Positions 22,258 to 43,130 of a stretch of DNA of 50,414 bases are shown in pieces (position 1 is the stretch's first letter; each line of letters starts with the position of its first letter). The translations under genes were made by a program, and so were the position numbers. Origin of the DNA: a virus (lineage: Duplodnaviria > Heunggongvirae > Uroviricota > Caudoviricetes); the IMG/VR virus record IMGVR_UViG_2718217859_000006, one strand, 5' to 3'. The notes beneath the pieces are model-generated. The model saw nothing but the letters and a program-made list of their open reading frames with translations. It ran no database searches and was not told where the DNA came from.

Positions 22258-22276
22258 CCCGTTGTAAAGTGAGGAT

Positions 22277-23886: not shown

Positions 23887-23944
23887 TACAATTAATTGAA
23901 ATATATAAATAAACATGATTTTCACCTGCCAGATGGAGTTGCTT

Positions 23945-24472
23945 ATGTCAAATGTGAGCGGGATCGGTGATGCTTATTACTGGAGTGTTTTTAAAATCGC
24001 TGAGGCCTTTGGGCTTCACCGGGACACAGTAAAAAAACGGCTTCTCGCGGCCAACACTCCTGTGGCTGCGACTGTCAGGGGGAACCCCGTTTACGCCCTG
24101 CAGCATGTCGGGCCAGCCCTGTTTAGTGTGAAGCATGAGGCAGCAGACTCTGTTCATGATCCATCCCGTATGGAGCCGAAAGAGAGAAAGGACTGGTACC
24201 AGTCTGAAAATGAAAGGATCAAGCTGGAAAAGGAGCAGCGAAAACTCATCCCCGTTGATGAAGTAGTCATCGTCTATTCGTCCATGAGAAAGGCTGTCGT
24301 CCAGGTTCTGGAGACAATTCCGGATGTTCTTGAACGCGATTGCGCCCTGACTCCTCAGGCCGTCGGCGTTGTACAGCAGGCAATTGATGACCTGCGATAC
24401 ACTCTTCAGGAAAAATCCTACGAGGCTTGTGCTGCTGAATTAATTCCTGATGAGGAAGGAGAGAGTCTCTAG
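23945..24472 (+). CDS. Terminase small subunit (Nu1-like)
   Basis: 175 aa from Met with GGAG SD; N-terminal HTH-like segment; immediately upstream of the large terminase. Confidence 0.8.
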   Translation: MSNVSGIGDAYYWSVFKIAEAFGLHRDTVKKRLLAANTPVAATVRGNPVYALQHVGPALFSVKHEAADSVHDPSRMEPKERKDWYQSENERIKLEKEQRKLIPVDEVVIVYSSMRKAVVQVLETIPDVLERDCALTPQAVGVVQQAIDDLRYTLQEKSYEACAAELIPDEEGESL

Positions 24473-24480
24473 GAGGAATA

Positions 24481-26580: not shown

Positions 26581-26789
26581 ACCAGAATGATATCGAAGCC
26601 ATGATTCAGCGTTATACGGAAGCTGAAATGGCGGTGCTGGACGGAAAATCCGTCACTTTTAATGGTCAGCAGATGACCATGGAAAACTTATCTGAGATCC
26701 GGCAGGGACGGCAGGAGTGGGAGCGCCGCCTTGCGGCTCTGATTACACGACGACGGGGGCATCCCGGGTACCGGCTGGCGAGGTTCTGA
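26577..26789 (+). CDS. Head-tail joining protein gpW-like
   Basis: About 70 aa; C-terminus ...ITRRRGHPGYRLARF resembles lambda W (...QRRRGPAGFYV); between terminase and portal. Confidence 0.7.
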   Translation: MNQNDIEAMIQRYTEAEMAVLDGKSVTFNGQQMTMENLSEIRQGRQEWERRLAALITRRRGHPGYRLARF

Positions 26790-28297
26790 TGGCAATTCTT
26801 GATGATGTGATTGGCGTTTTTTCACCAGGATGGAAAGCGGCAAGGCTGCGTTCCCGTGCGGTGATCCAGGCTTATGAGGCCGTAAAAACGACACGGACAC
26901 ACAAAGCCCGGCGGGAAAACCGAACTGCCGACCAGTTAAGCCAGTACGGGGCCGTGTCGTTACGTGAGCAGGCCCGTTACCTTGATAACAACCACGATCT
27001 GGTTATTGGTGTATTTGACAAGCTGGAAGAACGGGTGGTGGGGAAAAACGGGATTATTGTCGAGCCACATCCGGTATTACGCAATGGGGCCATTGCCCGT
27101 GATCTGGCAGCGGAGATACGCACCCGATGGAGTGAATGGTCTGTCAGTCCGGAAGTCACCGGGCAGTTTACCCGTCCGATGCTGGAACGTCTGATGCTGC
27201 GTACCTGGCTGCGCGATGGTGAGGTGTTTGCCCAGATGGTTTCCGGGCGCATAAACAGCCTGACGCCTTCTGCCGGTGTTCATTTCTGGCTGGAGGCGCT
27301 CGAGCCGGACTTTATTCCCATGACCAGTGATGAGAGCAACAGGCTGAATCAGGGCGTGTTTGTTGATGACTGGGGGCGTCCCGAAAAATATCTGGTGTAT
27401 AAAAGCCGTCCCGTATCCGGGCGGCAGATGGAAACCAAAGAAGTGGATGCAGAGCGAATGCTGCATCTTAAATTTGTTCGCCGTCTGCACCAGATGCGCG
27501 GGACGTCTTTGTTGTCCGGTGTGCTGATCCGCCTCAGTGCCCTGAAAGAGTATGAAGATTCTGAGCTGACTGCAGCAAGGATCGCCGCTGCTCTGGGGAT
27601 GTACATCCGGAAAGGCGACGGGCAGAGCTATGAACCGGATGGTAATGGCAGCAAGGAGAATGAACGCGAGCTTACCATTCAGCCAGGCATTATTTACGAC
27701 GATCTGAAACCCGGCGAAGAAATCGGAATGGTGAAGTCGGATCGTCCCAATCCTAACCTTGAAACTTTTCGTAATGGTCAGTTGCGTGCCGTGGCGGCGG
27801 GCAGTCGTCTGAGTTTTTCCAGTACGGCACGCAACTATAACGGCACTTACAGCGCCCAGCGTCAGGAACTGGTTGAGTCTACTGATGGCTACCTGATCCT
27901 GCAGGACTGGTTTATTGGTGCCGTCACCCGCCCGATGTATCGTGCCTGGCTGAAACAGGCTGTGGCATCCGGTGTTATCAGGCTACCCCGCGATCTTGAC
28001 CGTTCTTCACTGTATACCGCGGTGTATTCCGGACCGGTGATGCCGTGGATTGACCCTGTTAAGGAGGCTGAGGCCTGGAAAATCCAGATTCGTGGTGGAG
28101 CGGCGACAGAATCAGACTGGGTACGTGCTGGTGGTCGTAATCCGGATGATGTCAAACGTCGGCGCAAGGCCGAAATTGATGAAAACCGCAAGCTGGATCT
28201 GGTATTTGATACCGATCCGGCCAGTGATAAAGGAGGCAGCAGTGCCGCAACGAAACGACAGGAGCCGCAGCACACCGACGACCAGTCCGAAGAATAA
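26789..28297 (+). CDS. Portal protein
   Basis: 502 aa from ATG overlapping the W stop; size and position between W and the head protease. Confidence 0.85.
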   Translation: MAILDDVIGVFSPGWKAARLRSRAVIQAYEAVKTTRTHKARRENRTADQLSQYGAVSLREQARYLDNNHDLVIGVFDKLEERVVGKNGIIVEPHPVLRNGAIARDLAAEIRTRWSEWSVSPEVTGQFTRPMLERLMLRTWLRDGEVFAQMVSGRINSLTPSAGVHFWLEALEPDFIPMTSDESNRLNQGVFVDDWGRPEKYLVYKSRPVSGRQMETKEVDAERMLHLKFVRRLHQMRGTSLLSGVLIRLSALKEYEDSELTAARIAAALGMYIRKGDGQSYEPDGNGSKENERELTIQPGIIYDDLKPGEEIGMVKSDRPNPNLETFRNGQLRAVAAGSRLSFSSTARNYNGTYSAQRQELVESTDGYLILQDWFIGAVTRPMYRAWLKQAVASGVIRLPRDLDRSSLYTAVYSGPVMPWIDPVKEAEAWKIQIRGGAATESDWVRAGGRNPDDVKRRRKAEIDENRKLDLVFDTDPASDKGGSSAATKRQEPQHTDDQSEE

Positions 28298-28310
28298 TTC
28301 CTGGTTCAGG

Positions 28311-29687
28311 ATGCAGGCTGGTCACCAGAGTGACGCGGATATTTATATTTATGACGAGATTGGTTTCTGGGGTGTTACAGCGAAGCAGTTTATCAGTGAT
28401 CTGAATGCACTGGGCGATATCACCCACATTAATCTCCATATTAATTCACCGGGTGGCGATGTCTTTGAAGGCATCGCCATTTTTAATGCGCTGAAAACAC
28501 ATGGTGCGTCCATTACCGTTTATGTCGACGGTGTGGCGGCGTCAATGGCGTCGGTCATTGCGATGGTGGGAAACCCGGTCATTATGCCGGAAAACTCCTT
28601 CATGATGATTCATAAACCATTTGGATTTACGGGCGGTGATGCGGAGGACATGCGCACCTATGCCGACCTGCTCGATAAAGTTGAGGCGGTTCTGTTACCC
28701 GCTTATGCACAGAAAACCGGGAAAACCACCGATGAAATTACTGCCATGCTGGCGGATGAGACCTGGATGTCCGGTGCCGAATGTCTGGCACAGGGATTTG
28801 CTGATCAGGTGACACCAGCCGTTAAGGCAATGGCATGTATTCAGTCAAAACGTACAGAGGAATTTAAAAAGATGCCGGAATCCATTCGAAACATGATTAC
28901 TCCGCCACGCAACAGTGCTCCACGCGTACAGGATGATGAACCTGCAGCCTCCCGGACGCCAGTGCAGGCAGCAGCACCCGTGGTGGATGAAAACAGTATC
29001 CGTGCGCAGGTACTGGCAGAGCAAAAAGTGCGTGTAAACGGTATTAATGATCTGTTTGCCATGTTTGGCGGGCGTTATCAGACGCTGCAGGCCCAGTGTC
29101 TTGCCGATCCTGAATGTTCGCTGGAGCAGGCCCGTGAAAAGCTGTTGAACGAGATGGGGCGCGAGTCCACGCCATCCAATAAAAATACCCCGGCTCATAT
29201 TTATGCCGGTAACGGTAATTTTGTGGGGGAAGGGATTCGCCAGGCGCTGATGGCGCGTGCCGGATTTGAAAAAACCGAACGTGATAATGTCTACAACGGG
29301 ATGACCCTGCGTGAATATGCCCGTATGTCACTAACTGAACGGGGTATTGGGGTTTCCGGTTATAACCCGATGCAGATGGTCGGTGCGGCGTTCACACACA
29401 GTACGTCTGACTTCGGTAATATTCTGCTGGATGTTGCGAACAAAGCCATTCTGCAGGGCTGGGAAGATGCCCCTGAAACCTATGAACAGTGGACGCGGAA
29501 AGGTCAGTTGTCTGATTTTAAAATTGCCCATCGTGTGGGTATGGGGGCTTCAGTGCTCTGCGTCAGGTGCGTGAAGGGGCGGAATATAAATACGTCACCA
29601 CCGGAGATAAACAGGCCACTATTGCACTGGCGACCTATGGCGAGCTGTTCAGTATCACCCGTCAGGCCATTATCAATGATGATCTGA
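28311..29687 (+). CDS. Head maturation protease (ClpP/S49-like) fused to the N-terminal part of the major capsid protein; frame breaks near 29543-29547
   Basis: ClpP-like core (INSPGGDVFEG...MASVIAMVGN...MIHKP) then scaffold/capsid-like sequence; reading frame degenerates after a G5 run and the product continues in another frame. Confidence 0.7.
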   Translation: MQAGHQSDADIYIYDEIGFWGVTAKQFISDLNALGDITHINLHINSPGGDVFEGIAIFNALKTHGASITVYVDGVAASMASVIAMVGNPVIMPENSFMMIHKPFGFTGGDAEDMRTYADLLDKVEAVLLPAYAQKTGKTTDEITAMLADETWMSGAECLAQGFADQVTPAVKAMACIQSKRTEEFKKMPESIRNMITPPRNSAPRVQDDEPAASRTPVQAAAPVVDENSIRAQVLAEQKVRVNGINDLFAMFGGRYQTLQAQCLADPECSLEQAREKLLNEMGRESTPSNKNTPAHIYAGNGNFVGEGIRQALMARAGFEKTERDNVYNGMTLREYARMSLTERGIGVSGYNPMQMVGAAFTHSTSDFGNILLDVANKAILQGWEDAPETYEQWTRKGQLSDFKIAHRVGMGASVLCVRCVKGRNINTSPPEINRPLLHWRPMASCSVSPVRPLSMMI

Positions 29688-30268
29688 ATATGCTGACCGA
29701 TGTCCCGATGAAACTGGGCCGTGCAGCGAAATCCACTATTGCCGATCTGGTTTATGCCATTCTGACGTCTAACCCGAAAATCTCCACAGATAATGTAAGT
29801 CTGTTCGATAAAGCGAAACATGCAAACGTACTGGAGAGCGCTGCAATGGACGTGGCATCGCTGGATAAAGCCCGCCAGTTGATGCGCGTTCAGAAAGAGG
29901 GGGAGCGTCATCTGAATATTCGTCCTGCGTTCGTACTGGTACCGACGGCGATGGAGTCTGTTGCTAACCAGGTCATTCGCTCCTCAAGTGTCAAGGGGGC
30001 TGACATTAACGCCGGTATTATTAACCCGGTGAAAGATTTTGCGACCGTTATTGCAGAGCCTCGTCTTGATGATAACAGCCAGACCACCTTCTACCTGGCT
30101 GCGTCAAAAGGCTCCGATACGATTGAAGTGGCTTATCTCAACGGTGTGGATACGCCATATATTGATCAGATGGAGGGCTTCAGTGTGGATGGCGTGACAA
30201 CGAAAGTGCGTATTGACGCCGGTGTCGCGCCAGTTGATCACCGCGGTCTGGTGAAATGTACGGCGTAA
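29567..30268 (+). CDS. Major capsid protein, C-terminal portion (continuation of the previous gene after a 1-nt frameshift)
   Basis: Frame is open from about 29518; the two frames splice through a GGGGG run to give a continuous protease-capsid fusion. Confidence 0.65.
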   Translation: MREGAEYKYVTTGDKQATIALATYGELFSITRQAIINDDLNMLTDVPMKLGRAAKSTIADLVYAILTSNPKISTDNVSLFDKAKHANVLESAAMDVASLDKARQLMRVQKEGERHLNIRPAFVLVPTAMESVANQVIRSSSVKGADINAGIINPVKDFATVIAEPRLDDNSQTTFYLAASKGSDTIEVAYLNGVDTPYIDQMEGFSVDGVTTKVRIDAGVAPVDHRGLVKCTA

Positions 30269-30354
30269 ACGTCGCAGACAACAACTCTGATGGCCCGTAA
30301 GGGCTTTTTTTGTACCTGAAATCAGCCCCTGAACGGGGCTGTGCGGAGACAGTT

Positions 30355-30678
30355 ATGGCAAAGAATTTTGTAGAAGAAGGAAAAACGGTGGCGATTGTTG
30401 CCAGTGCAGCCATCTGCAGCGGAGAACTGGTGCAGGTGGGCGATGTTTTTGCGGTGGCGCTGACCGATATTCCACAGGGTGAAACAGGCGACGGCATGAC
30501 CGAAGGTGTGTTTATGCTGCCTAAGCTGAAAACGGATGACATGAAAACGGGTAAGAAGGTTTATCTGAAGTCCGGAAAAGTTCAGCTGACTAACAGCGGC
30601 TCTGATCCGCTGGTCGGGGTTGTCTGGGCAGATGCCGGAACCAGTGCAGAAGAAGTGCCGGTAAAACTCAATGTCTGA
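30355..30678 (+). CDS. Small phage head protein (possible decoration/head-completion protein)
   Basis: 107 aa from Met; position immediately after the capsid gene. Confidence 0.5.
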   Translation: MAKNFVEEGKTVAIVASAAICSGELVQVGDVFAVALTDIPQGETGDGMTEGVFMLPKLKTDDMKTGKKVYLKSGKVQLTNSGSDPLVGVVWADAGTSAEEVPVKLNV

Positions 30679-30946
30679 TCCCTTTTCCCGGCTGGCAGCG
30701 CGTATGGATGCTATCACGGTTAGAAAGATGGGAAAGACAGCCTCGATTAATGATGTCGATATGACTGTGATCCCGGGAGAAACACTGGCAGAGCTGAATG
30801 CTCTGTCCGGACCTGCGGTCTCTCTGGTGGTGTTTTCTTCGGGATACCGCCCACGGCGCGGGGATCGCGTTGTTTATGACGGACAACAATGGACGGTCAC
30901 ACGGCATGAACGCTTTAACGGTAAGCCAATGATCTTTATTGAGTAA
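30671..30946 (+). CDS. Head-tail adaptor/joining protein
   Basis: 91-aa ORF in the head-tail connector position. Confidence 0.55.
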   Translation: MSDPFSRLAARMDAITVRKMGKTASINDVDMTVIPGETLAELNALSGPAVSLVVFSSGYRPRRGDRVVYDGQQWTVTRHERFNGKPMIFIE

Positions 30947-30957
30947 AGAGGTGTGGG

Positions 30958-31536
30958 ATGAAGGGGCTTGAGAATGCCATCCGCAATCTGAACAGCCTTG
31001 ATACCCGTATGGTGCCACAGGCCAGCGCATGGGCGATAAACCGTGTGGCACAGAAAGCGGTCTCGGTTACCACCCGGCAGGTTGCCGGGAATACCGTTGC
31101 GGGAGATAACCAGGTGAAAGGGATCCCCCTGAAACTGGTACGTCAGCGTGTCCGGGTGTTTAAAGCCAGTCCGTCAGGAAAAATGACGGCCAGGATCCGC
31201 GTTAACCGGGGCAATCTGCCTGCCATTAAGCTGGGGACAGCCCGGGTCAGACTGGCCCGGCGTGGTGGAAAACTGCAGTACCGTGGCAGTGTGCTGAAGG
31301 TGGGTAAATATCTTTTCCGGGATGCGTTTATTCAGCAACTGGCGAATGGTCGCTGGCATGTGATGCGGCGTATTGATGGCAAAAATCGTTACCCCATTGA
31401 TGTGGTGAAAATCCCGCTGTCCGGACAGCTGACACAGGCATTTGAAGATGCCCGCGACCGCATCATTGCTGCGGAAATGCCGAAACAGCTGGGGTATGCA
31501 CTGAAACAACAACTGAGGTTATGGCTGACCCGATGA
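30958..31536 (+). CDS. Tail completion protein (lambda Z-like)
   Basis: 192 aa, the same length as lambda Z as recalled; position before the U-like gene. Confidence 0.6.
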   Translation: MKGLENAIRNLNSLDTRMVPQASAWAINRVAQKAVSVTTRQVAGNTVAGDNQVKGIPLKLVRQRVRVFKASPSGKMTARIRVNRGNLPAIKLGTARVRLARRGGKLQYRGSVLKVGKYLFRDAFIQQLANGRWHVMRRIDGKNRYPIDVVKIPLSGQLTQAFEDARDRIIAAEMPKQLGYALKQQLRLWLTR

Positions 31537-31934
31537 ACCGACATACACAAATCCGCCAGGTCGTACTGGCACGCCTTCGGGAACAGTGTAGAGACAGCGC
31601 CACGTTTTTTGACGGGCTTCCGGCATTTGTTGATGCGCAGGAACTGCCTGCCGTGGCGGTGTGGCTGAGTGATGCTCAGTACACCGGAAAAATGACGGAT
31701 GAAGATGACTGGCAGGCTGTTCTGCATATTGCTGTCTTCATCCGGGCACAGGCACCGGATTCAGAGCTGGATATGTGGATGGAGAGCACCATTTTCCCGG
31801 CCCTGAATGATGTACCAGCACTTTCCGGACTCATCGACACCCTGATCCCACTCGGTTTTAACTATCAACGTGATAATGAGATGGCCACCTGGGCGATGGC
31901 GGAAATCACGTACCAGATCACGTACACGAATTAA
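31521..31934 (+). CDS. Tail terminator protein (lambda U-like)
   Basis: 137 aa, immediately upstream of the major tail protein. Confidence 0.7.
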   Translation: MADPMNRHTQIRQVVLARLREQCRDSATFFDGLPAFVDAQELPAVAVWLSDAQYTGKMTDEDDWQAVLHIAVFIRAQAPDSELDMWMESTIFPALNDVPALSGLIDTLIPLGFNYQRDNEMATWAMAEITYQITYTN

Positions 31935-31944
31935 GGAGGTGGTA

Positions 31945-32688
31945 ATGACCACACCAAATCCACTGGCAAAAACGAAAGGTGCGGGAACGACGTTCTGGAT
32001 GTATACCGGCAAGGGCGATGCGTTTGCGAACCCTTTATCGGACACTGACTGGCTGCGTCTTGCGATGGTGAAGGATCTGCAACCTGGCGAAATGACCGCT
32101 GATGCAGAAGATGACACTTATCTCGATGATGAAGATGCAGACTGGAAAACGACAACCCAGGGGCAGAAATCCGTTGGTGATACTTCGGCGACGCTGGCCT
32201 GGCGTCCGGGTGACAGCGGGCAGAAAAAACTGGTTCAGTTGTTCGACTCCGGTGAAGTCTGCGCGTTTCGTATCAAATATCCCAACAGCACTGTTGATGT
32301 TTTCCGTGGCTGGTTGAGCTCACTGGGTAAAACCATTGCCTCAAAAGACGTGATGACCCGCACTGTGAAAATCAGCGGTGTGGGGCGTCCGTATCTGGCA
32401 GAGGAAGGCACTGAAACCGTGAGCGTTACCGGGCTGACAGTATCACCGGCATCTGCCAGTGTAAAAGTGGGAGCAACCACCACGCTGACCTTTACAGTAA
32501 AACCTGACGGAGCCAGTGACAAAGCGATCAGTGTGCATTCGTCAGATCCACAGACTGCCACGGTTACCCTGAACGGACTTGTGGCCACGGTAAAAGGCGT
32601 GAAGCAGGGCAGTGTCAGCATTGTGGGCATGACCGCTGACGGGAATTTTGTGGCTGTGGCTGCGGTGACTGTCAGCGCAGCAGGTTAA
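31945..32688 (+). CDS. Major tail protein V with C-terminal Ig-like (Big_2) domain
   Basis: 247 aa from ATG with AAGGAGG SD; C-terminal TVSPASASVKVGATTTLTFTVKPDGASDKAISVHSSDPQTATV is a Big_2-type fold. Confidence 0.85.
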   Translation: MTTPNPLAKTKGAGTTFWMYTGKGDAFANPLSDTDWLRLAMVKDLQPGEMTADAEDDTYLDDEDADWKTTTQGQKSVGDTSATLAWRPGDSGQKKLVQLFDSGEVCAFRIKYPNSTVDVFRGWLSSLGKTIASKDVMTRTVKISGVGRPYLAEEGTETVSVTGLTVSPASASVKVGATTTLTFTVKPDGASDKAISVHSSDPQTATVTLNGLVATVKGVKQGSVSIVGMTADGNFVAVAAVTVSAAG

Positions 32689-32708
32689 CAGGACGATACT
32701 CATCATTT

Positions 32709-32733
32709 GCCCCGGTTATTCGGGGCTTTTTTG
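32709..32733 (+). terminator. Hairpin with T-tract between V and G (possible attenuator)
   Basis: GCCCCGGTTATTCGGGGC followed by TTTTTTG, 20 nt after the V stop. Confidence 0.5.
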
Positions 32734-32745
32734 CAGGTGGAGAAC

Positions 32746-33135
32746 ATGATGTTTCTGAAACAGGACACGTTTAATTATGAAAAACAGTCCGTAGTGCTCA
32801 GTGAGCTGTCCGGGCTGCAGAGAATTGAATATCTGACGTTTGTTCAGCAGCGAACGGCAAAGTTTGATGCCGGGGAGGGAGAACTGCCGGAGGCTGAACG
32901 ACAGATTGCTTTTCTGCGGATGGGGATGGATATCAATGCCTGGCTGGTTTCCCGCTCACTGTGGAATGCGGAACAGTCTCAGGATGTTGAGACGCTTTAC
33001 GCATCCGTTATTACAACATGGTCGTATGATGCCCTGGGGGCGGGGGCGGAGATGGTTCTGTCGCTGAGCGGTATGGGGGCCATTGATAATGCCGGGGATT
33101 TGGAGCATGAGGTGCTGACGCCGGAAAAGTCCTGA
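32746..33135 (+). CDS. Tail assembly chaperone G
   Basis: About 130 aa; position between V and the tape-measure gene; followed by an overlapping -1 frame ORF (T). Confidence 0.8.
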   Translation: MMFLKQDTFNYEKQSVVLSELSGLQRIEYLTFVQQRTAKFDAGEGELPEAERQIAFLRMGMDINAWLVSRSLWNAEQSQDVETLYASVITTWSYDALGAGAEMVLSLSGMGAIDNAGDLEHEVLTPEKS

Positions 33136-33143
33136 CGCGGGAA

Positions 33144-33473
33144 ATGCAGTTTGTCATGCGGCTTGCCCGGGAGTTCCGGCGGGCAGACTGGCGGCGGATG
33201 CTGTCGGAAATGTCGGCCACTGAGCTTGGTGAGTGGGGCGATTATTTCCGGATGCAGAGCTTCAGTGATGTGTGGATGGATGCGCAGTTTGCCTCGCTGA
33301 AGGCATTGATCGTGAGAATGGTGTCCGGCAGCAGTGATGCTGCGGTGGCTGATTTCAGCCTTTTACCGGAAGAGAACGGGATACCGGAGCGAACGGACGA
33401 AGAACTGATGCATCTTGGGGAAGGTATTTCCGGAGGTGTGCGTTATGGACCAGATAGCCAACCTGGTCATTGA
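33144..33473 (+). CDS. Tail assembly protein T segment (expected to be made as a G-T fusion by -1 frameshift)
   Basis: The -1 frame is open across the G stop; conserved G/GT arrangement of long-tailed phages; T overlaps the H start. Confidence 0.7.
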   Translation: MQFVMRLAREFRRADWRRMLSEMSATELGEWGDYFRMQSFSDVWMDAQFASLKALIVRMVSGSSDAAVADFSLLPEENGIPERTDEELMHLGEGISGGVRYGPDSQPGH

Positions 33474-36183
33474 TTTGGGGATTGATGCGGCAGAGTTTAA
33501 AAATGAAATTCCCCGTATCAAAAACCTTCTGAATGGTGCAGCCAGCGATGCAGAACGGTCTTCTGCCCGTATGCAGCGTTTTATGGAGCGTCAGACTCAG
33601 GCCGCCCGGCAGACAACGCAGGCGGCGTCTTCGGCTGCAACAGCCGCATCCGTCCATGCGCAGACGGTGGAGAAGAACGCACAGGCTCATGAACGCATGG
33701 CCCGCGAGGTGGAGAAAACCCGCCAGCGTATGGAGGCACTGAGCCAGAAAATGCGCGAGGAACAGGCGCAGGCCATGGCTCTGGCGGAGGCTCAGGATAA
33801 AGCAGCTGCTGCGTTTTATCGTCAGATTGACAGTGTGAAACAGGCCAGTGCGGGGCTGCAGGAATTACAGCGTATTCAGCAGCAGATCCGACAGGCCAGA
33901 AACAGTGGCGGGATTGGTCAGCAGGATTATCTGGCGCTGATTTCTGAGGTTACGGCGAAAACCCGTGTTCTTACGCAGGCTGAGGAAGAGGCTACCCGAC
34001 AGAAAGTGGCGTTTATCCGTCAGCTTAAAGAGCAGGCAACCCGCCAGAATCTTTCTTCTTCTGAGTTGCTTCGTGCTAAGGCTGCCCAGCTGGGGGTAAG
34101 CAGTGCTGCAGAAGTGTATATCCGCAAAATGGAGCAGGCAGGAAAAGCCACGCATTCGCTGGGTCTGAAAAGTGCAGCGGCCCGCCAGGAGATAGGCGTT
34201 CTGATAGGTGAACTGGCCCGCGGCAATTTAGGGGCGCTGAGGGGATCCGGGATAACGCTGGCTAACCGTGCCGGATGGATAGACACTCTGATGTCACCGA
34301 AAGGCATGATGCTTGGCGGGGTTATTGGCGGTATTTCCGCGTCCGTCTATGGTCTGGGTAAAGCCTGGTATGACGGTCAGAAGGAGGGGGAAGAATTTAA
34401 CCGCCAGTTGTCGCTGACGGGGCATTATGCCGGAGTCACTGCCGGGCAGCTGTGGACGCTCAGTCGTGCTATTTCCGGGAATGGTATCACGCAACATGCT
34501 GCAGCCGGTGCGCTGGCTCAGGTGGTGGGGAGTGGTGCATTTCGTGGAAACGATATCGGTATGGTGGCGAGAGCTGCCGCACAGATGGAGCGATCGGTTG
34601 GCCAGTCGGTCAGCGATACCATAAATCAGTTTAAGCGGCTGAAGGATGATCCTGTAAATGCCGCGAAGGCTCTGGACAATGAGCTGCATTTTCTTACTGC
34701 CACTCAGCTTGAGCAGATACGTGTCCTTGGGGATCAGGGACGGTCCAGTGATGCTGCACGGATAGCCATGTCTGCACTGGCAGAGGAAACCGGTCGGCGT
34801 ACTGCGGATATTGATAATAACCTCAATGCGCTTGGCAGTACGCTGAAGTATCTGTCTGATTTGTGGAGTCGTTTCTGGGATGCGGCCATGAATATTGGTC
34901 GTGAAGACTCGCTGGATGAACAGATTGCCGCTTTACAGGAGAAAGTGTCGCGGGCGAAAAGACTCCCCTGGACGGCATCATCTTCTCAGGTTGAATACGA
35001 TCAGCAGCGTCTTAACGATCTTCAGGAGAAAAAACGCCAGAAGGATTTGCAGGATGCAAAAGAGCAGGCAGAGCGGAATTATCAGGAGCAACAGAAACGA
35101 CGTAATGCTGAAAATGCTGCACTGAACCGGATGAATGAAACGGAAGCAGCACGACATCAGCGTGAAATTGCGCGTATTAATTCCATGCAGTACGCCGATC
35201 AGGCTGTCAGGGATGCAGCGATACAACGTGAAAATGAACGTTACGAGAAAGCCCTGGCATCCGGTAAGAAAAAAACACGCGAAACCCGTAATGATGAGGC
35301 CACCAGGTTATTGCTGCAGTACAGTCAGCAACAGGCACAGGTTGAAGGACAGATTGCTGCTGCAAGACAGTCAGCAGGCATTGCCACTGAAAAGATGACA
35401 GAAGCGCATAAACAGCTTCTGGCTCTGCAGCAGCGCATCAGCGATCTGGACGGGAAAAAACTGACGGCAGATGAAAAGAGTGTGCTGGCCCGTAAAGATG
35501 AACTGATTCAGGCACTGACGCTGCTGGATGTAAAACAGCAGGAGCTTCAGAAACAGACGGCACTCAACGATCTGAAGAAAAAAACAATTCAGCTGACCAG
35601 TCAACTGGCTGAAGAAGAGCGCGCTCAGCGTCAGCAACATGACCTGGATATCGCCACGGTGGGTATGGGTGATCAGCAGCGGCAGCGATATCAGGTACAA
35701 CTGAGTCTTCGCCAGAAATACCAGCAACAGCTGGAGCAGTTGAGGCGGGATAGTGAGCAGAAAGGGACATATAACACGGATGACTACAGAAAGGCCGAGC
35801 AGGCGCTGACGGAGAGCCTGAACCGACAACTGAATGAGAATCGCCGTTACTGGCAACAGCTTGAAGTTGTGCAGGGTAACTGGAAAAACGGAGTCCTGCG
35901 TGCATTTCAGGATTTTACCGTGGATGCAGACAATACGGCAGGAACAGCAGAACAGGTGTTCTCGTCAGCCTTCAGCAACATGGGAAATGGCCTGGCAACT
36001 TTTGTCACTACCGGCAAACTCAACTTCAAATCCTTCACCTCTTCGGTGCTGTCAGATATGGCGAAAATCCTGGCGCAGGCAACCATGATGAAATCGATAA
36101 AAGGGATTGGCAGTGTACTGGGATTTGATCTCAGCAGCCTTTCCCTGAATGCCAATGGGGGATTTATCAGTCTGCTGATTTGA
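33445..36183 (+). CDS. Tail tape-measure protein H (frame breaks near the 3' end)
   Basis: 912 aa from ATG with GGAGG SD; long coiled-coil, Ala/Gln-rich; the conserved C-terminal motif GEAGPEAILPL sits in the next ORF in a different frame. Confidence 0.85.
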   Translation: MDQIANLVIDLGIDAAEFKNEIPRIKNLLNGAASDAERSSARMQRFMERQTQAARQTTQAASSAATAASVHAQTVEKNAQAHERMAREVEKTRQRMEALSQKMREEQAQAMALAEAQDKAAAAFYRQIDSVKQASAGLQELQRIQQQIRQARNSGGIGQQDYLALISEVTAKTRVLTQAEEEATRQKVAFIRQLKEQATRQNLSSSELLRAKAAQLGVSSAAEVYIRKMEQAGKATHSLGLKSAAARQEIGVLIGELARGNLGALRGSGITLANRAGWIDTLMSPKGMMLGGVIGGISASVYGLGKAWYDGQKEGEEFNRQLSLTGHYAGVTAGQLWTLSRAISGNGITQHAAAGALAQVVGSGAFRGNDIGMVARAAAQMERSVGQSVSDTINQFKRLKDDPVNAAKALDNELHFLTATQLEQIRVLGDQGRSSDAARIAMSALAEETGRRTADIDNNLNALGSTLKYLSDLWSRFWDAAMNIGREDSLDEQIAALQEKVSRAKRLPWTASSSQVEYDQQRLNDLQEKKRQKDLQDAKEQAERNYQEQQKRRNAENAALNRMNETEAARHQREIARINSMQYADQAVRDAAIQRENERYEKALASGKKKTRETRNDEATRLLLQYSQQQAQVEGQIAAARQSAGIATEKMTEAHKQLLALQQRISDLDGKKLTADEKSVLARKDELIQALTLLDVKQQELQKQTALNDLKKKTIQLTSQLAEEERAQRQQHDLDIATVGMGDQQRQRYQVQLSLRQKYQQQLEQLRRDSEQKGTYNTDDYRKAEQALTESLNRQLNENRRYWQQLEVVQGNWKNGVLRAFQDFTVDADNTAGTAEQVFSSAFSNMGNGLATFVTTGKLNFKSFTSSVLSDMAKILAQATMMKSIKGIGSVLGFDLSSLSLNANGGFISLLI

Positions 36184-36509
36184 GTCGTTACAGTGGCACG
36201 GTGGTTAACCGTCCGACGTTTTTTGCTTTTGCAAAAGGCGCGGGTGTGATGGGGGAAGCTGGACCTGAAGCCATTCTGCCACTGCGTCGTGGTGCTGACG
36301 GTAAGCTGGGGGTTGTGGCGGATATTGGTGGTTCAGGTATGGCGATGTTTGCCCCGCAGTACAACATCGAGATCAATAACGATGGCACGAACGGGCAGAT
36401 AGGTCCGGCTGCCCTGAAGGTGGTTTATGACCTTGGGAAAAAAGCGGCAGCGGACTTTATGCAACAGCAGGCCCGTGATGGTGGTCGGTTAAGTGGAGCA
36501 TATCGGTAA
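36180..36509 (+). CDS. Tape-measure protein C-terminal segment, separated from H by a 1-nt frameshift
   Basis: Contains TVVNRPTFFAFAKGAGVMGEAGPEAILPL; its frame is open upstream through the last ~10 codons of H; frames splice through a GGGGG run at about 36157-36161. Confidence 0.65.
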   Translation: MSRYSGTVVNRPTFFAFAKGAGVMGEAGPEAILPLRRGADGKLGVVADIGGSGMAMFAPQYNIEINNDGTNGQIGPAALKVVYDLGKKAAADFMQQQARDGGRLSGAYR

Positions 36510-36838
36510 TGGAGACGTTTCACTGGAAAGTGCGCCCGGATATGAATGTGGTATCAGAGCCGAAAGTGGTGACAGTGAAGCTGGGCGATGGTTATGAACA
36601 GCGTCGTGCGGCGGGACTGAATAACCAGTTGTCGACTTACAGCGTGACGATACGTGTTCGTAAATGTGAACACCCATCTTTAAAAGCCTTTCTGGAACGG
36701 CACGGTGGCGTCCGCGCATTTCAGTGGACGCCACCTTATGACTGGAAGCCGATCAGGGTGGTTTGTCGTAAATGGTCGGCAAGCGTGGGGGCGTTGTGGG
36801 TAACCATAACGGCAGATTTTGAACAGGTCGTGGCATAG
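36509..36838 (+). CDS. Minor tail protein M
   Basis: 109 aa, the same length and position as lambda M. Confidence 0.85.
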   Translation: METFHWKVRPDMNVVSEPKVVTVKLGDGYEQRRAAGLNNQLSTYSVTIRVRKCEHPSLKAFLERHGGVRAFQWTPPYDWKPIRVVCRKWSASVGALWVTITADFEQVVA

Positions 36839-36847
36839 GAGTCTCTG

Positions 36848-37546
36848 ATGCAGGATATTCCACAGGAAACACATCATGAGACGACACGCCTCACTCAGTC
36901 AGCCCAGGTGGTGCTCTGGGAAATCGATCTGACAGTGGTCGGTGGAGAACGTTATTTTTTCTGTAATGAGCAGAACGAAAAAGGTGAGCCGGTCACCTGG
37001 CAGGGGCGACAGTATCAGGCGTATCCCATTCAGGGGACGGGATTTGAACTGAACGGCAAGGGCAGTGCTGCCCGTCCGACACTGACGGTTTCTAACCTGC
37101 ACGGCATGGTCACCGGGATGGCGGAAGATCTGCAGAGTCTGGTCGGAGGAACGGTGGTCCGGCGTAAGGTTTACGCCCGTTTTCTGGATGCGGTGAACTT
37201 CGTCAACGGAAACAGTGACGCCGATCCGGAGCAGGAGGTGATCAGCCGCTGGCGCATCGAGCAGTGCAGCGAACTGAGCGCGGTGAGTGCCTCTTTTGTA
37301 CTGTCCACGCCGACGGAAACGGACGGTGCCGTTTTTCCGGGACGTATCATGCTGGCCAACACCTGCACCTGGACCTATCGCGGTGATGAGTGCGGTTATC
37401 ACGGTCCGGCGGTCGCGGATGAATATGATCAGCCGACGTCCGATATCACGAAGGATAAATGCAGCAAATGCCTGAGCGGCTGTAAGTTTCGCAATAACGT
37501 CGGCAACTTTGGCGGCTTCCTTTCCATTAACAAACTTTCACAGTGA
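36848..37546 (+). CDS. Minor tail protein L
   Basis: 232 aa, the same length and position as lambda L; C-terminal Cys cluster. Confidence 0.85.
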   Translation: MQDIPQETHHETTRLTQSAQVVLWEIDLTVVGGERYFFCNEQNEKGEPVTWQGRQYQAYPIQGTGFELNGKGSAARPTLTVSNLHGMVTGMAEDLQSLVGGTVVRRKVYARFLDAVNFVNGNSDADPEQEVISRWRIEQCSELSAVSASFVLSTPTETDGAVFPGRIMLANTCTWTYRGDECGYHGPAVADEYDQPTSDITKDKCSKCLSGCKFRNNVGNFGGFLSINKLSQ

Positions 37547-38295
37547 ATCCCATGACAGAGACAGAATCAGCGATTCTGGCGCACGCCCGGCGATGTGCGC
37601 CAGCGGAGTCGTGCGGCTTCGTGGTGAGAACACCGGAGGGGGAAAGATATTTTCCCTGCGTGAATATCTCCGGTGAGCCGGAGGAGTATTTCCGGATGTC
37701 GCCGGAGGACTGGCTGCGGGCAGAGATGCAGGGTGAGATTGTGGCGCTGGTCCACAGCCACCCCGGTGGTCTGCCCTGGCTGAGTGAGACCGACCGGCGG
37801 CTGCAGGTGCAGAGTGATTTGCCGTGGTGGCTGGTTTGCCGGGGGGCGATTCACAAGTTCCGCTGTGTGCCACATCTTTCCGGGCGGCGCTTTGAGCACG
37901 GGGTGACGGACTGTTACACGCTGTTCCGGGATGCTTACCATCTGGCGGGGATTGAGATGCCGGATTTTCATCGCGAGGATGACTGGTGGCGTAACGGTCA
38001 GAATCTCTATCTGGATAATCTGGAGGCCACAGGGCTGTATCAGGTGCCGTTGTCAGCGGCGCAGCCGGGCGATGTGCTGCTGTGCTGTTTTGGTTCATCG
38101 GTGCCGAATCATGCCGCCATTTACTGTGGTGACAGCGAGCTGCTGCACCATATTCCTGAACAACTGAGCAAACGAGAGAGGTACACCGACAAATGGCAGC
38201 GACGCACACACTCCCTCTGGCGTCACCGGGAATGGCACGCATCTGCCTTTACGGGGATTTGCAACGATTTGGCCGCCGCATCGACCTTCGTGTGA
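37543..38295 (+). CDS. Tail assembly protein K (NlpC/P60 plus JAB/MPN-like domains), C-terminally extended
   Basis: JAMM-like motif VALVHSHPGG; NlpC/P60-like Cys-His region (GVTDCYTLFRDAYH, HAAIY); overlaps gene I by about 100 nt. Confidence 0.8.
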   Translation: MNPMTETESAILAHARRCAPAESCGFVVRTPEGERYFPCVNISGEPEEYFRMSPEDWLRAEMQGEIVALVHSHPGGLPWLSETDRRLQVQSDLPWWLVCRGAIHKFRCVPHLSGRRFEHGVTDCYTLFRDAYHLAGIEMPDFHREDDWWRNGQNLYLDNLEATGLYQVPLSAAQPGDVLLCCFGSSVPNHAAIYCGDSELLHHIPEQLSKRERYTDKWQRRTHSLWRHREWHASAFTGICNDLAAASTFV

Positions 38296-38864
38296 AAACG
38301 GGGGCTGAAGCCATCCGCGCACTGGCCACACAGCTCCCGGCGTTTCGTCAGAAACTGAGCGACGGCTGGTATCAGGTACGGATTGCCGGGCGGGACGTCA
38401 GCACGTCCGGGTTAACGGCGCAGTTACATGAGACTCTGCCTGACGGCGCTGTGATTCATATTGTTCCCAGAGTCGCCGGGGCCAAGTCAGGGGGCGTATT
38501 CCAGATTGTTCTGGGGGCTGCCGCCATTGCCGGATCATTCTTTACTGCCGGAGCCACCCTTGCAGCATGGGGGGCAGCCATTGGGGCCGGTGGTATGACC
38601 GGTATCCTGTTTTCTCTCGGTGCCAGTATGGTGCTCGGTGGTGTGGCGCAGATGCTGGCACCGAAAGCCAGGACGCCCACGGCAGCAAGTACAGATAACG
38701 GCAAACAGAACACCTATTTCTCCTCACTGGATAACATGGTTGCCCAGGGCAATGTTCTGCCCGTTCTGTACGGTGAAATGCGCGTGGGGTCGCGGGTGGT
38801 CTCTCAGGAGATCAGCACGGCAGACGAAGGGGATGGTGGTCAGGTTGTGGTGATTGGTCGCTGA
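38193..38864 (+). CDS. Tail assembly protein I
   Basis: 223 aa, the same length as lambda I; Gly/Ala-rich membrane-like central segment. Confidence 0.8.
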   Translation: MAATHTLPLASPGMARICLYGDLQRFGRRIDLRVKTGAEAIRALATQLPAFRQKLSDGWYQVRIAGRDVSTSGLTAQLHETLPDGAVIHIVPRVAGAKSGGVFQIVLGAAAIAGSFFTAGATLAAWGAAIGAGGMTGILFSLGASMVLGGVAQMLAPKARTPTAASTDNGKQNTYFSSLDNMVAQGNVLPVLYGEMRVGSRVVSQEISTADEGDGGQVVVIGR

Positions 38865-38923
38865 TGAAAAACGTTTATGTGAAACCGCCTCCGGGCGGTT
38901 TTGTCGTTTATGGAGCGTGAGGA

Positions 38924-41900
38924 ATGGGTAAAGGCAGCAGTAAGGGGCATACTCCGCGCGAAGCGAAGGACAACCTGAAGTCCACGCAGTTGCTGAGTGT
39001 GATCGATGCCATCAGCGAAGGGCCGATTGAAGGGCCGGTGGATGGATTAAAAAGCGTGCTGCTGAACAGTACGCCAGTGCTGGACAGTGAGGGGAATACC
39101 AACATCTCCGGCGTCACGGTGGTGTTCCGGGCCGGTGAGCAGGAGCAGACACCGCCAGAGGGATTTGAATCCTCCGGCTCCGAGACGGTGCTGGGTACGG
39201 AAGTGAAATACGACACGCCGATCACCCGGACCATCACGTCGGCAAACATTGACCGACTGCGTTTTACCTTCGGCGTGCAGGCACTGGTGGAAACCACCTC
39301 AAAGGGGGACAGGAATCCGTCGGAAGTCCGCCTGCTGGTTCAGATACAGCGTAATGGTGGCTGGGTGACGGAAAAAGACATCACCATTAAGGGCAAAACC
39401 ACCTCGCAGTATCTGGCCTCAGTGGTGGTGGGTAACCTGCCGCCGCGCCCGTTCAGTATACGGATGCGCAGGATGACGCCGGACAGCACCACAGACCAGC
39501 TGCAGAACAAAACGCTCTGGTCGTCATACACCGAAATCATCGATGTGAAACAGTGCTACCCGAACACGGCACTGGTCGGTGTGCAGGTGGACTCGGAGCA
39601 GTTCGGCAGCCAGCAGGTGAGCCGTAATTATCATCTGCGCGGGCGTATTCTGCAGGTGCCGTCGAATTATAACCCGCAGACGCGGCAATACAGCGGTATC
39701 TGGGACGGAACGTTTAAACCGGCATACAGCAACAACATGGCCTGGTGTCTGTGGGATATGCTGACCCATCCGCGCTACGGCATGGGGAAACGTCTTGGTG
39801 CGGCGGATGTGGATAAATGGGCGCTGTATGTCATCGGCCAGCATTGCGACCAGTCGGTGCCTGACGGCTTTGGTGGCACGGAGCCACGCATCACCTGTAA
39901 TGCTTACCTGACCACGCAGCGTAAGGCGTGGGATGTGCTCAGTGATTTCTGCTCGGCGATGCGCTGTATGCCGGTATGGAACGGGCAGACGCTGACGTTC
40001 GTGCAGGACCGGCCGTCGGATAAGGTGTGGACCTATAACCGCAGTAATGTGGTGATGCCGGATGACGGCGCGCCGTTCCGCTACAGCTTCAGCGCCCTGA
40101 AGGACCGCCATAATGCTGTTGAGGTGAACTGGATTGACCCGGACAACGGCTGGGAGACGGCGACAGAGCTTGTGGAGGACACGCAGGCCATTGCCCGTTA
40201 CGGTCGTAACGTCACGAAGATGGATGCCTTTGGCTGTACCAGCCGGGGGCAGGCACACCGCGCCGGGCTGTGGCTGATTAAAACGGAACTGCTGGAAACG
40301 CAGACCGTGGACTTCAGCGTGGGTGCCGAAGGGCTTCGCCATGTGCCGGGCGATATCATTGAAATCTGCGATGATGACTATGCGGGTATCAGCATCGGTG
40401 GTCGCGTGCTGGCGGTGAACAGCCAGACCCGGACGCTGACGCTCGACCGTGAAATCACGCTGCCATCCTCCGGCACCACGCTGATAAGCCTGGTTGACGG
40501 AAATGGCAATCCGGTCAGCGTGGAGGTTCAGTCCGTCACCGACGGCGTGAAGGTAAAAGTGAGCCGTGTTCCTGACGGCGTTGCCGGATACAGCGTGTGG
40601 GGGCTGAAGCTGCCGACGCTGCGCCAGCGACTGTTCCGCTGCGTGAGTATCCGTGAGAACGACGACGGCACGTATGCCATCACCGCCGTGCAGCATGTGC
40701 CGGAAAAAGAGGCCATCGTGGATAACGGGGCGCACTTTGACGGCGACCAGAGCGGCACGGTGAATGGTGTCACGCCGCCAGCGGTGCAGCACCTGACTGC
40801 CGAAGTCACCGCAGACAGCGGGGAATATCAGGTGCTGGCGCGATGGGACACACCGAAGGTGGTGAAGGGCGTGAGCTTCCTGCTCCGTCTGACCGTAACA
40901 GCGGGCGACGGCAGTGAGCGGCTGGTCAGCACGGCCCGGACGACGGAAACCACATACCGCTTCACACAACTGGCGTTGGGGAACTACAGGCTGACAGTCC
41001 GGGCGGTAAATGCGTGGGGACAGCAGGGCGATCCGGCATCGGTATCGTTCCGGATTGCCGCACCGGCAGCGCCGTCTCGGATTGAGCTGACACCGGGCTA
41101 TTTTCAGATAACCGCCACGCCGCATCTTGCGGTTTATGACCCGACGGTACAGTTTGAGTTCTGGTTCTCGGAAAAACGGATTGCTGGTATCAGGCAGGTT
41201 GAAACCACAGCGCGCTATCTTGGCACGGCGCTGTACTGGATAGCCGCCAGTATCAATATCAGGCCGGGCCATGATTATTATTTTTACGTTCGCAGTGTGA
41301 ACACCGTTGGCAAATCGGCATTCGTGGAGGCTGTTGGTCAGCCGAGTGATGATGCATCCGGCTATCTGGATTTTTTCAAAGGCGAGATAGGGAAAACCCA
41401 TCTGGCTCAGGAGCTGTGGACGCAGATTGATAACGGTCAGCTTGCGCCTGACCTGGCTGAAATCAGGACGTCCATTACGGATGTCAGCAATGAAATCACG
41501 CAGACCGTCAATAAGAAACTGGAAGACCAGAGTGCGGCAATTCAGCAGATACAGAAGGTTCAGGTTGATACAAATAATAACCTGAACAGCATGTGGGCTG
41601 TGAAGCTGCAGCAGATGCAGGACGGACGCCTTTATATCGCGGGTATTGGTGCCGGTATTGAGAACACCCCTGACGGCATGCAGAGTCAGGTGCTGCTGGC
41701 GGCGGACAGGATTGCGATGGTTAATCCTGCGAATGGCAACACAAAACCGATGTTTGTTGGTCAGGGCGATCAGATATTCATGAACGACGTGTTCCTGAAA
41801 CGCCTGACGGCCCCCACCATTACCAGCGGTGGAAATCCACCGGCATTTTCCCTGACACCGGACGGAAAGCTGACCGCTAAAAATGCGGATATCAGCGGTA

Positions 41901-42406
41901 ATGTGAATGCAAATTCAGGGACGCTCAACAATGTCACGATTAATGAAAACTGTCAGATTAAGGGGAAACTGTCAGCCAATCAGATTGAAGGCGATATTGT
42001 CAAAACGGTCAGCAAGTCTTTCCCCCGCACGAACAGTTATGCCAGTGGCACCATCACGGTAAGAATCAGTGATGATCAGAAATTTGACCGGCAGGTCATG
42101 ATACCGCCAGTGTTATTCCGCGGTGGTAAGCATGAGAATTTCAACAGTAATAACCAACAGTCATACTGGTATTCAACCTGCCGGTTAAGAGTGACCCGCA
42201 ATGGTCAGGAGATTTTTAATCAGTCCACGACGGATGCTCAGGGCGTATTTTCCTCAGTTATAGATATGCCTGCCGGACAGGGGACACTGACACTGACATT
42301 CACCGTATCTTCATCAGGAGCGAATAACTGGACACCAACAACCAGTATCAGCGATCTGCTGGTTGTGGTGATGAAGAAATCCACAGCAGGTATCAGTATC
42401 AGCTGA
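38924..42406 (+). CDS. Host specificity protein J (tail tip / central fibre)
   Basis: 1160 aa, lambda J-sized, immediately after I. Confidence 0.9.
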
Positions 42407-42423
42407 ATTTTATAACCCATAAC

Positions 42424-42447
42424 GGGCGTCAGAAATGACGCCTTTTT
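42424..42447 (+). terminator. Intrinsic terminator after J
   Basis: GGCGTCAGAAATGACGCC hairpin followed by TTTTTTATT. Confidence 0.6.
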
Positions 42448-42472
42448 TATTGCAGAAAAGCGAGAGGTAATT

Positions 42473-43072
42473 ATGCGTAAACTTTATGCCGCCATTTTGT
42501 CCGCAGCCATTTGTCTGGCCGTATCCGGTGCGCCTGCATGGGCGTCTGAACATCAGTCCACGCTGAGCGCGGGGTATCTTCATGCCTCGACGAACGTTCC
42601 CGGCAGCGATGATCTGAACGGGATTAACGTGAAATACCGTTATGAGTTTACGGACACACTGGGGATGGTGACGTCATTCAGCTATGCAGGAGACAAGAAT
42701 CGCCAGCTGACCCATTACAGCGATACCCGCTGGCATGAAGATTCCGTGCGTAACCGCTGGTTCAGCGTGATGGCGGGGCCGTCTGTGCGCGTGAATGAAT
42801 GGTTCAGCGCGTATGCGATGGCGGGTGTGGCTTACAGCCGTGTGTCGACTTTCTCCGGGGATTATCTTCGCGTAACTGACAACAAGGGGAAAACGCACGA
42901 TGTACTGACCGGAAGTGATGACGGTCGCCACAGCAACACGTCTCTGGCGTGGGGAGCTGGCGTGCAGTTTAACCCGACCGAATCCGTGGCCATTGATATT
43001 GCTTATGAAGGCTCCGGCAGTGGCGACTGGCGCACTGACGGTTTCATCGTGGGTGTCGGTTATAAGTTCTGA
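42473..43072 (+). CDS. lom: Lom/Ail-family outer-membrane beta-barrel protein
   Basis: 199 aa with signal peptide (MRKLYAAILSAAICLAVSGAPAWA) and C-terminal GVGYKF; own terminator at about 43097-43124. Confidence 0.9.
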   Translation: MRKLYAAILSAAICLAVSGAPAWASEHQSTLSAGYLHASTNVPGSDDLNGINVKYRYEFTDTLGMVTSFSYAGDKNRQLTHYSDTRWHEDSVRNRWFSVMAGPSVRVNEWFSAYAMAGVAYSRVSTFSGDYLRVTDNKGKTHDVLTGSDDGRHSNTSLAWGAGVQFNPTESVAIDIAYEGSGSGDWRTDGFIVGVGYKF

Positions 43073-43130
43073 TTAGCCAGGTAACACAGTGTTATGACAG
43101 CCCGCCGGTTCAGGCGGGCTTTTTTGTGGG

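Follow-up and report, generated by a model that had tools for sequence, protein, structure and literature searches.

The window, a stretch of viral DNA (Caudoviricetes) of 50,414 nucleotides, is an Escherichia coli Qin-locus prophage carrying relBE, hokD, cspB/F/I, essD, rrrQ, pinQ, tfaQ and a truncated ydfJ. Its tape-measure gene follows the G/T chaperone genes, precedes M-L-K-I-J and is of the lambda gpH type, sharing the domain set and the gene order V-G-T-H-M-L-K-I-J with mEp460 gp13 and other E. coli Qin-locus prophages; its DNA shares 99–100% identity with that of mEp460 and of many prophage genes in E. coli. Lambda gpH itself is 853 aa long versus 1021 aa in the window's relatives, with an overall identity of only ~25%. 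The N-terminal open reading frame (ORF) of the gene encodes 912 aa (33445–36183, + strand). Its start at 33445 agrees with the RefSeq/GenBank CDS starts in two relatives (L001 and L002), the mechanical ORF start being a TTG at 33415. Three Pfam domains scored above the gathering score in this fragment, TMP_2 (residues 228–426, 165 bits), TMP_4 (616–693, 63.5 bits) and Tape_meas_lam_C (811–885, 79 bits), and the same hits were obtained with the 1021-aa protein of a relative.

The 912-aa ORF terminates as ...SLNANGGFISLLI*, its stop falling seven codons past a run of five Gs (G5; 36157–36161, + strand) that is preceded by AAT (36154–36156) and followed by ATTT (36162–36165), and its out-of-frame tail reads FISLLI*. 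The run is six Gs long (G6) in all close relatives, so that the window carries a single-base deletion. In an alignment with E. coli AR_0077 and phage mEp460, the sole difference over 133 columns was G6 in both relatives versus G5 in the window, which bears out the proposal of a preliminary description of this DNA that a 1-nt frameshift in the G run breaks the gene and that one extra G restores it. The end at 36183, the frames and the join at 36154–36165 given there were likewise confirmed by the sequence and its ORFs. In the G6 relatives, the tape-measure CDS is 3066 nt long and encodes 1021 aa, reading ...NANGGIYQSADLSRYSGTVVN... across the site, and the last 116 residues of this protein correspond to the part detached in the window. 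A mechanical ORF of 109 aa (36180–36509, + strand), in a different frame from the 912-aa ORF, encodes ...SRYSGTVVNRPTFFAFAKGAGVMGEAGPEAILPL...; the true reading frame of this C-terminal fragment runs on from 36162.

The 109-aa ORF has no Pfam domain of its own, and it aligns to lambda gpH residues 788–850 with 54% identity (E 5e-19). The alignment covers the extreme C-terminus of gpH, which is continuous through the break point, and includes residues 818–842, described as a coiled coil in the tip lumen (PMC10721106). The window thus has no single continuous ORF reaching this C-terminal tip-binding helix, and the helix-homologous segment lies in a separate frame; in all close relatives the same segment is continuous with the rest of the protein. 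The earlier statement that the conserved C-terminus is found in the next ORF holds for this gpH homology but not for the Tape_meas_lam_C domain, which lies upstream of the break. An alternative layout, in which 36183 is the true end of the tape-measure protein and the 109-aa ORF stands as a gene of its own downstream, could appeal to a few records in which fragments of 109, 102 and 86 aa were deposited as separate proteins by gene callers. Against it, the ORF aligns with the final 63 residues of lambda gpH, all intact relatives have it contiguous with the gene, and RefSeq labels carriers of the G5 version ‘frameshifted’ pseudogenes. Among tape-measure genes of E. coli prophages, more than 1,500 of which are continuous here, no homologue was found that ends at the same point with a separate gene behind it. 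This continuity and the gpH alignment refute a separate gene, to which we assign virtually no probability, and the same applies to its variant, a phase-variable contingency tract, as the run length is essentially fixed at six in more than 1,500 genomes. Judged from sequence homology, the 109-aa ORF is the tape-measure C-terminus and not a separate gene.

As the preliminary description had reported, a second structural gene carries a G5 lesion. The ClpP-like prohead protease/major capsid fusion gene, a single 675-aa CDS in relatives, is divided in the window into an N-terminal part of 481 aa (28242–29687, + strand; Pfam CLP_protease) and a C-terminal part of 233 aa in a shifted frame (29567–30268, + strand; Pfam Phage_capsid_4, positions 57–261 of 262). 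The division is made by another single-base deletion, G5 at 29543–29547 (+ strand) where close relatives have G6, and both lesions are therefore one-base length changes, G6 to G5, within a homopolymer. Upstream, an IS66-family (ISCro1-like) element (21180–23878, + strand) is inserted just before a terS-like DUF1441 gene. It is flanked by an 8-bp target duplication, GACCAGTT (21172–21179 and 23879–23886), and two relatives (L003 and L008) show the empty site. The IS66 insertion is a genuine lesion of the prophage lineage.

We compared the window with assemblies of the same lineage and with close relatives. A draft contig of GCA_011948005.1 (L004) was reached through its exact 1160-aa J protein, a J seen in three samples. 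Its first base falls at about window position 23880, at the right edge of the IS66 element, whose end is at 23878; because of the exact J and of this contig start, we regard it as the same lineage with the same insertion. Over 14,000 bp (window 28926–42923), it showed zero substitutions, and the only differences were G6 at both break sites. Two features, the tape-measure G run and a mosaic tract in J, set another record (L016) apart from window 33138–50414, to which it is otherwise identical. In L008, window 12076–21179 is matched at 100% identity, and over 23875–36578 the differences are two substitutions and both G-run gaps. Relatives that share the J allele and the IS66 edge thus have G6 runs and neither lesion, which inherited decay would not predict. 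The preliminary description had held that the two lesions should be judged together, as either homopolymer error or real decay. Taken jointly, they favour homopolymer error, since both are private to the window and missing from an independent assembly that is otherwise base-identical.

The main competing explanation is that both lesions are genuine and very recent, arising by −1 replication slippage in G6 runs during the decay of an IS66-disabled Qin-type prophage. Runs of G are slippage hotspots, with an indel rate that grows exponentially with run length (PMC8510543), and with a bona fide IS66 insertion and its 8-bp target duplication already in the lineage, further decay would be tolerated. 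The window resembles decaying cryptic lambdoid prophages such as Qin and Rac in its IS insertions, and related Qin-type copies truly decay: the L gene of L003 is interrupted by a TAG stop, and in L015 a deletion joins the capsid gene to L. A real lesion here would be inactivating, as the detached ORF aligns to gpH 788–850 and so spans the tip-lumen coiled coil at 818–842. Lesions in such decaying prophages are inherited, however, whereas the two in the window are not common to its clonal relatives; independent assemblies of the same lineage, otherwise base-identical over 21.5 kb, are without either of them. Nor, once one structural gene is dead, is there selection for hitting another. We consider genuine slippage unlikely, while leaving it an appreciable chance.

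The spectrum of length changes bears on the same choice. With ~41.7 kb of the window aligned to L003, the only 1-nt indels inside genes were the two G-run deletions, and there were no insertions. Two of the five G/C runs of six were shortened, while none of ~80 A/T runs of 6–8 was altered, among them 16 of length 7 and four of length 8; that these longer runs are unaltered argues against slippage. The preliminary description had suggested counting other G/C runs of five, and none of 41 was altered relative to L003. The three retained runs of six are a G6 in a K-like gene (37841–37846, + strand), a G6 in an I-like gene (38569–38574, + strand) and a C6 in the pinQ region (47491–47496, + strand). 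A shared ‘AT’ to the left of the run was considered as a cause of G6 failure and rejected, since both lesions share their left context, AT GGGGGG, with the G6 at 38569, which is retained. Real mutation is also less expected because substitutions should accompany indels: mismatch-repair-deficient E. coli accumulated 30,061 substitutions versus 5,324 small indels (PMC8510543), and at this ratio two indels with zero substitutions have a probability of about 0.02. Two private indels with no private substitution are unlikely under either wild-type or mutator spectra.

Both G5 alleles are rare in public genomes. The tape-measure G5 version had an exact match in 3 of 1,540 RefSeq complete E. coli records, and the next-best matches listed for this query were all G6; the capsid G5 version had an exact match in 4 of 1,824 RefSeq records. 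No RefSeq record had both, and if the two arose independently, the expected frequency of the pair would be about 4e-6 per genome. That both are rare and never occur together in these records points to a cause common to one assembly. An exact-pattern scan for the tape-measure G5 gave no match in IMG/VR, GTDB representatives or JGI metagenomes, compared with at least 120 matches to G6 in IMG/VR, and a search for exact matches to the truncated 912-aa protein gave no record. In each of two RefSeq genomes with the tape-measure G5 (G749 and RM8995-C1), another tail gene, no more than 16 kb away, is likewise labelled ‘frameshifted’. The capsid G5 recurs in visibly noisy contigs with 5–13 one-base homopolymer deletions per 7–12 kb, and the identical 233-aa capsid product recurs in noisy, long-read-like contigs. 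The tape-measure run, on the other hand, is no general hotspot of error, since assemblies with very high noise (L142, L144, L146 and L151–L153) still retain it as G6. An otherwise clean contig from another lineage (L143, Logan SRR29354241) carries the tape-measure G5 with the 912 + 109-aa split. This allele may be a genuine mutation in that lineage, and its occurrence there lends genuine slippage some support.

We also considered whether ribosomal −1 frameshifting or transcriptional slippage at the G5 sites could still yield full-length tape-measure and capsid proteins. Re-reading one base offsets a 1-nt deletion, and AAT GGG GGA|ATT... would then give the wild-type N-G-G-I-Y; the base count fits at both sites. 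The tail cluster already employs programmed −1 frameshifting from G into T, as is known for lambda, and few tape-measure copies suffice per tail. This gpG/gpGT frameshift, directly upstream within the operon, likewise connects two frames (G, 32707–33135; T frame open from 33111). It is conserved in homologues, whereas the tape-measure break is not, and for that reason the break is better read as a deletion than as a decoding signal. Lambda and mEp460 have the gene in frame, as do more than 1,500 relatives from E. coli and at least 120 contigs of IMG/VR, and the identical-lineage assemblies carry G6. Moreover, T GGG GGA, with T as the preceding base, is not a canonical X XXY YYZ heptamer, and the major capsid protein is required in hundreds of copies, which low-level slippage cannot supply. 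Decoding at these sites is accordingly very improbable. An incipient recoding site, in which both G5 runs are genuine and low-level wild-type tape-measure protein comes from −1 ribosomal or transcriptional slippage, has a similarly slim chance.

Homopolymer miscalls in the source assembly are the probable explanation of both G5 breaks, and on this reading of the sequence comparisons the tape-measure gene would be intact in the organism. A G6 would have been recorded as G5 at 36157–36161, with the same kind of miscall at 29543–29547, most likely in a long-read-based consensus. PacBio-type chemistry is known to lose single bases from G/C runs of 5–6. In one study of PacBio consensus errors, 2,927 deletions were counted versus one insertion, ‘essentially’ in G/C homopolymers of 5–6, affecting only a subset of runs and showing no sequence motif (PMC7694296); in another, 205 residual indels were left after Quiver at 262x, and almost all of them fell in runs of G or C (PMC4832174). 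The residual errors of long reads are mainly homopolymer indels that result in frameshifts, and they persist in repeats despite short-read polishing (PMC8812927). By an alternative route, the two miscalls could be long-read residuals left unfixed by short-read polishing, prophage genes often being multi-copy. The window’s spectrum of deletions only, in a subset of G/C runs of 5–6, matches that of published PacBio-type consensus errors. The two share single-base deletions in G runs of six, a subset affected, A/T runs spared and artefactual frameshifts and pseudogenes, although the published cases come from high-GC genomes and the window’s platform is our presumption. It is from the observed deletions, their privacy to the window and their error-like spectrum that we infer this platform, and reads that would show G6. 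Raw nanopore error was rejected as a source: nanopore-like contigs of this prophage fail at A7, T7, A8 and T8 runs and at CCTGG sites, and the window has these intact.

The significance of the two breaks is mostly one of quality control, and neither outcome raises a new biological question. If they are real, they represent routine decay of a cryptic Qin-type prophage that would be unable to form capsids or tails; its tape-measure protein would be shorn of the C-terminal 116 residues, including the tail-tip anchor helix, which in lambda lies in the lumen on the gpI tripod. If they are assembly errors, the source assembly probably holds many similar false G/C-run frameshifts genome-wide, the pseudogene label would be wrong, and the head and tail genes of this prophage would be intact apart from the IS66 insertion.

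The window is a lambdoid prophage of the E. coli Qin locus. Judged by the annotation of OkiPb01676, the nearest relative in RefSeq, it has int/xis, relBE, hokD, cspB/F/I and essD-ydfR-rrrQ-rzpQ as well as a head and tail module that is complete, with pinQ, tfaQ and a truncated ydfJ at its right end. Its tail genes run in the order V, G, T, H, M, L, K, I, J. From 33111 onward the frame of T is open, overlapping the last codons of G (stop codon 33133–33135), with what we take to be the slippery site, G GAA AAG at 33123–33129, one base off lambda's G GGA AAG; the overlap (33111–33135) is a normal programmed frameshift and no lesion. Within gene L (36848–37546), position 36986 reads GAG in the window and TAG in OkiPb01676 (annotated ‘internal stop’, minor tail protein L), so the window's L is intact and that of OkiPb01676 genuinely broken. 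Two segments of 20 bp (8373–8392) and 8 bp (8587–8594) are absent from OkiPb01676, where DUF977 is annotated ‘frameshifted’, and the window's DUF977 ORF (8216–8635) seems to be intact; beside it lies the remnant of an ISEsa1 (IS1202-like) transposase (8669–10009). In the DUF1398 gene region (minus strand), a 21-bp direct duplication, TTTTCTGGATGCTTTCAGTAA at 19750–19770, is an in-frame length polymorphism present in the window, OkiPb01676 and a 5.2-Mb contig (L008) and absent from L005–L007 and L010–L012.

The tape-measure ORF begins at 33445, the annotated start in relatives, and ends ...SLNANGGFISLLI* at 36183, and the next ORF (36180–36509), in another frame, encodes ...SRYSGTVVNRPTFFAFAKGAGVMGEAGPEAILPL.... 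The two meet at AAT GGGGG ATTT (36154–36165), whose G5 occupies 36157–36161. Against E. coli AR_0077 and phage mEp460, both of which have G6, this is the single difference in 133 alignment columns, and the G6 version of the gene is 3066 nt long and encodes 1021 aa. The preliminary description had read this as a frame broken at the G5 run, and every detail held, coordinates and frames included. The 109-aa downstream ORF matches residues 788–850 of lambda gpH (of 853) with 54% identity (E 5e-19), the intact 1021-aa relative aligns to gpH end to end, and gpH 818–842 forms a three-helix coiled coil in the tail-tip lumen of the lambda virion, on the gpI tripod (PMC10721106). The ORF is therefore the tape-measure C-terminus; a separate downstream gene is ruled out by the gpH alignment, and neither gpH nor the relatives stop at the break with a separate gene following, the case that the preliminary description had named as refuting its reading. 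The Pfam domain Tape_meas_lam_C (residues 811–885) precedes the break, and no Pfam model matched the lost C-terminal segment.

A base-by-base comparison with OkiPb01676, in two blocks on either side of an IS66 insertion (~41.7 kb aligned), yielded only two intragenic 1-base indels, at 36157–36161 and 29543–29547, each G6 to G5. The latter, a second G5 lesion in a structural gene as first suspected, falls in the ClpP-like prohead protease/major capsid fusion gene (675 aa in relatives), which is split into 28242–29687 and 29567–30268. Two of the five length-6 G/C runs counted in OkiPb01676 are thus shortened in the window, with G6 at 37841, G6 at 38569 and C6 at 47491 kept at full length. None of the ~80 A/T runs of 6–8 or of the 41 G/C runs of 5 has changed, and the census found no insertion in the window over the aligned ~41.7 kb.

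The G5 lesions are not shared with relatives of the window. The capsid site is G6 in 10 of 10 long-contig relatives fetched through terminase, and the tape-measure site in all nine terminase-fetched relatives whose retrieved DNA reaches it; at least 120 IMG/VR contigs also have the tape-measure G6. When the window's exact 1160-aa J protein was looked up, just one draft contig came back (L004, GCA_011948005.1), present in 3 samples. Over window positions 28926–42923 (14,000 bp) this contig shows no substitutions, its sole differences being G6 at both sites. Its first base corresponds to ~23880 and the IS66 ends at 23878, so the break in the contig coincides exactly with the edge of the IS, and the contig very probably belongs to the window's own lineage and shares its insertion. 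Another draft (L016) is identical over 33138–50414 save for the tape-measure G run and a mosaic tract in J. This tract (39842–40528), with 27 substitutions in ~690 bp relative to L003 (OkiPb01676), L015, L016 and L017 and identical flanks, is shared exactly with L004 and resembles a recombination patch within the host-specificity protein. L008 is 100% identical over 12076–21179 and differs over 23875–36578 by two substitutions and the two G-run gaps. Among RefSeq complete E. coli genomes, exact matches to G5 numbered 3 of 1,540 records for the tape-measure and 4 of 1,824 for the capsid site, and none carried both; the tape-measure G5 pattern had no match in IMG/VR, GTDB species representatives or JGI metagenomes.

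The preliminary description had called for judging both lesions jointly, as systematic homopolymer error or real decay. Taken together they are probably an assembly error, homopolymer miscalls and not biology: G6 runs at both sites would have been miscalled as G5, with a PacBio-type consensus error spectrum. Were the two alleles independent, they would occur together at ~4e-6 per genome, which argues that a cause specific to the window's assembly struck both sites. We consider it unlikely that both are genuine, the product of a very recent double slippage. The window's private changes are two deletions and no substitutions across >30 kb of otherwise identical sequence, and the ratio in mismatch-repair-deficient E. 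coli (30,061 substitutions versus 5,324 small indels, PMC8510543) gives ~0.02 for two indels without a substitution. Indel rates also climb exponentially with run length (PMC8510543), and despite this no A/T run of 7 or 8 has changed. The observed spectrum (deletions only, in G/C runs of 5–6, some runs only, no motif) is that of PacBio-type consensus errors. In Thermus thermophilus NAR1, PacBio compared with Illumina gave 2,927 deletions and 1 insertion, ‘essentially’ in G/C homopolymers of 5–6, with 1.64% of such runs affected and no context motif (PMC7694296); a Quiver-polished Streptomyces assembly at 262x retained 205 indels, which with few exceptions lay in G or C runs (PMC4832174). Residual long-read errors are mainly frameshift-causing homopolymer indels that outlast short-read polishing in repeats (PMC8812927), and some E. 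coli genomes hold up to 3–6 copies of these phage genes.

Other assemblies of this prophage also bear on the question. The RefSeq carriers of the tape-measure G5, G749 and RM8995-C1, have tape-measure genes annotated ‘frameshifted’, each with a second frameshifted tail gene nearby. These second frameshifts (window-equivalent 41020 in G749 and 42955 in RM8995-C1, one within J, the other within lom) each stem from loss of the A in one shared context, GCGTGGGG-A, in different genes and assemblies, and so look like context-specific sequencing error. The capsid G5 recurs in noisy contigs L148–L153, which have 5–13 one-base homopolymer deletions per 7–12 kb, in A7, T7 and A6 runs and at CCTGG; two uncorrected-type assemblies (L142, L146) have 11–27 one-base indels per 10 kb. 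Relative L006 (GCA_045583645.1) lost a C in CCTGG/CCCTGG (Dcm sites) at window-equivalent 27204, 19834 and 20652, splitting the portal gene, a typical methylation-associated nanopore error that contrasts with the window's G-run-only pattern.

Several observations speak for real mutation. The window is far cleaner than the noisy contigs, with all A7, T7, A8 and T8 runs correct, and the tape-measure run is G6 even in those contigs, so it is no generic error hotspot. An otherwise clean contig of another lineage (Logan SRR29354241, 98.6% identical) shares both the tape-measure G5 and the 912+109-aa split, which may be a real mutation there. The prophage was already damaged by an IS66-family (ISCro1-like) element (21180–23878; 21172–23886 with target duplications), with terminal GTAA(C/G)CG inverted ends and an 8-bp target duplication, GACCAGTT. 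It lies between the lysis/accessory region and a terS-like DUF1441 gene and ends 36 nt before that gene's first in-frame ATG (23915) and 66 nt before its annotated start (23945); the empty site is present in OkiPb01676 and L008. The head and tail genes are probably cut off from the late promoter by the insertion, and cos may be affected as well. Real lesions also exist in related Qin-type prophages, namely the TAG in L of OkiPb01676 and, in GCA_021754645.1 (L015), a deletion that joins the capsid gene with L. The latter, ~6.9 kb from window-equivalent 30042 to 36958, takes out the tail tube, chaperone, tape-measure and M genes, is called as a 796-aa fusion product and is clear real decay in a short-read draft.

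Two functional readings of the G5 sites are not supported. For programmed frameshifting the arithmetic works, a -1 slip after GGA restoring N-G-G-I-Y, but the two-frame layout is not conserved, the heptamer is non-canonical and the demand for capsid protein exceeds what slippage gives. Nor is the run a phase-variable tract, since >1,500 genomes show essentially one length, 6. Either outcome for the paired lesions, which are probably miscalls, would be ordinary: an artefact, or the routine decay of a cryptic prophage.
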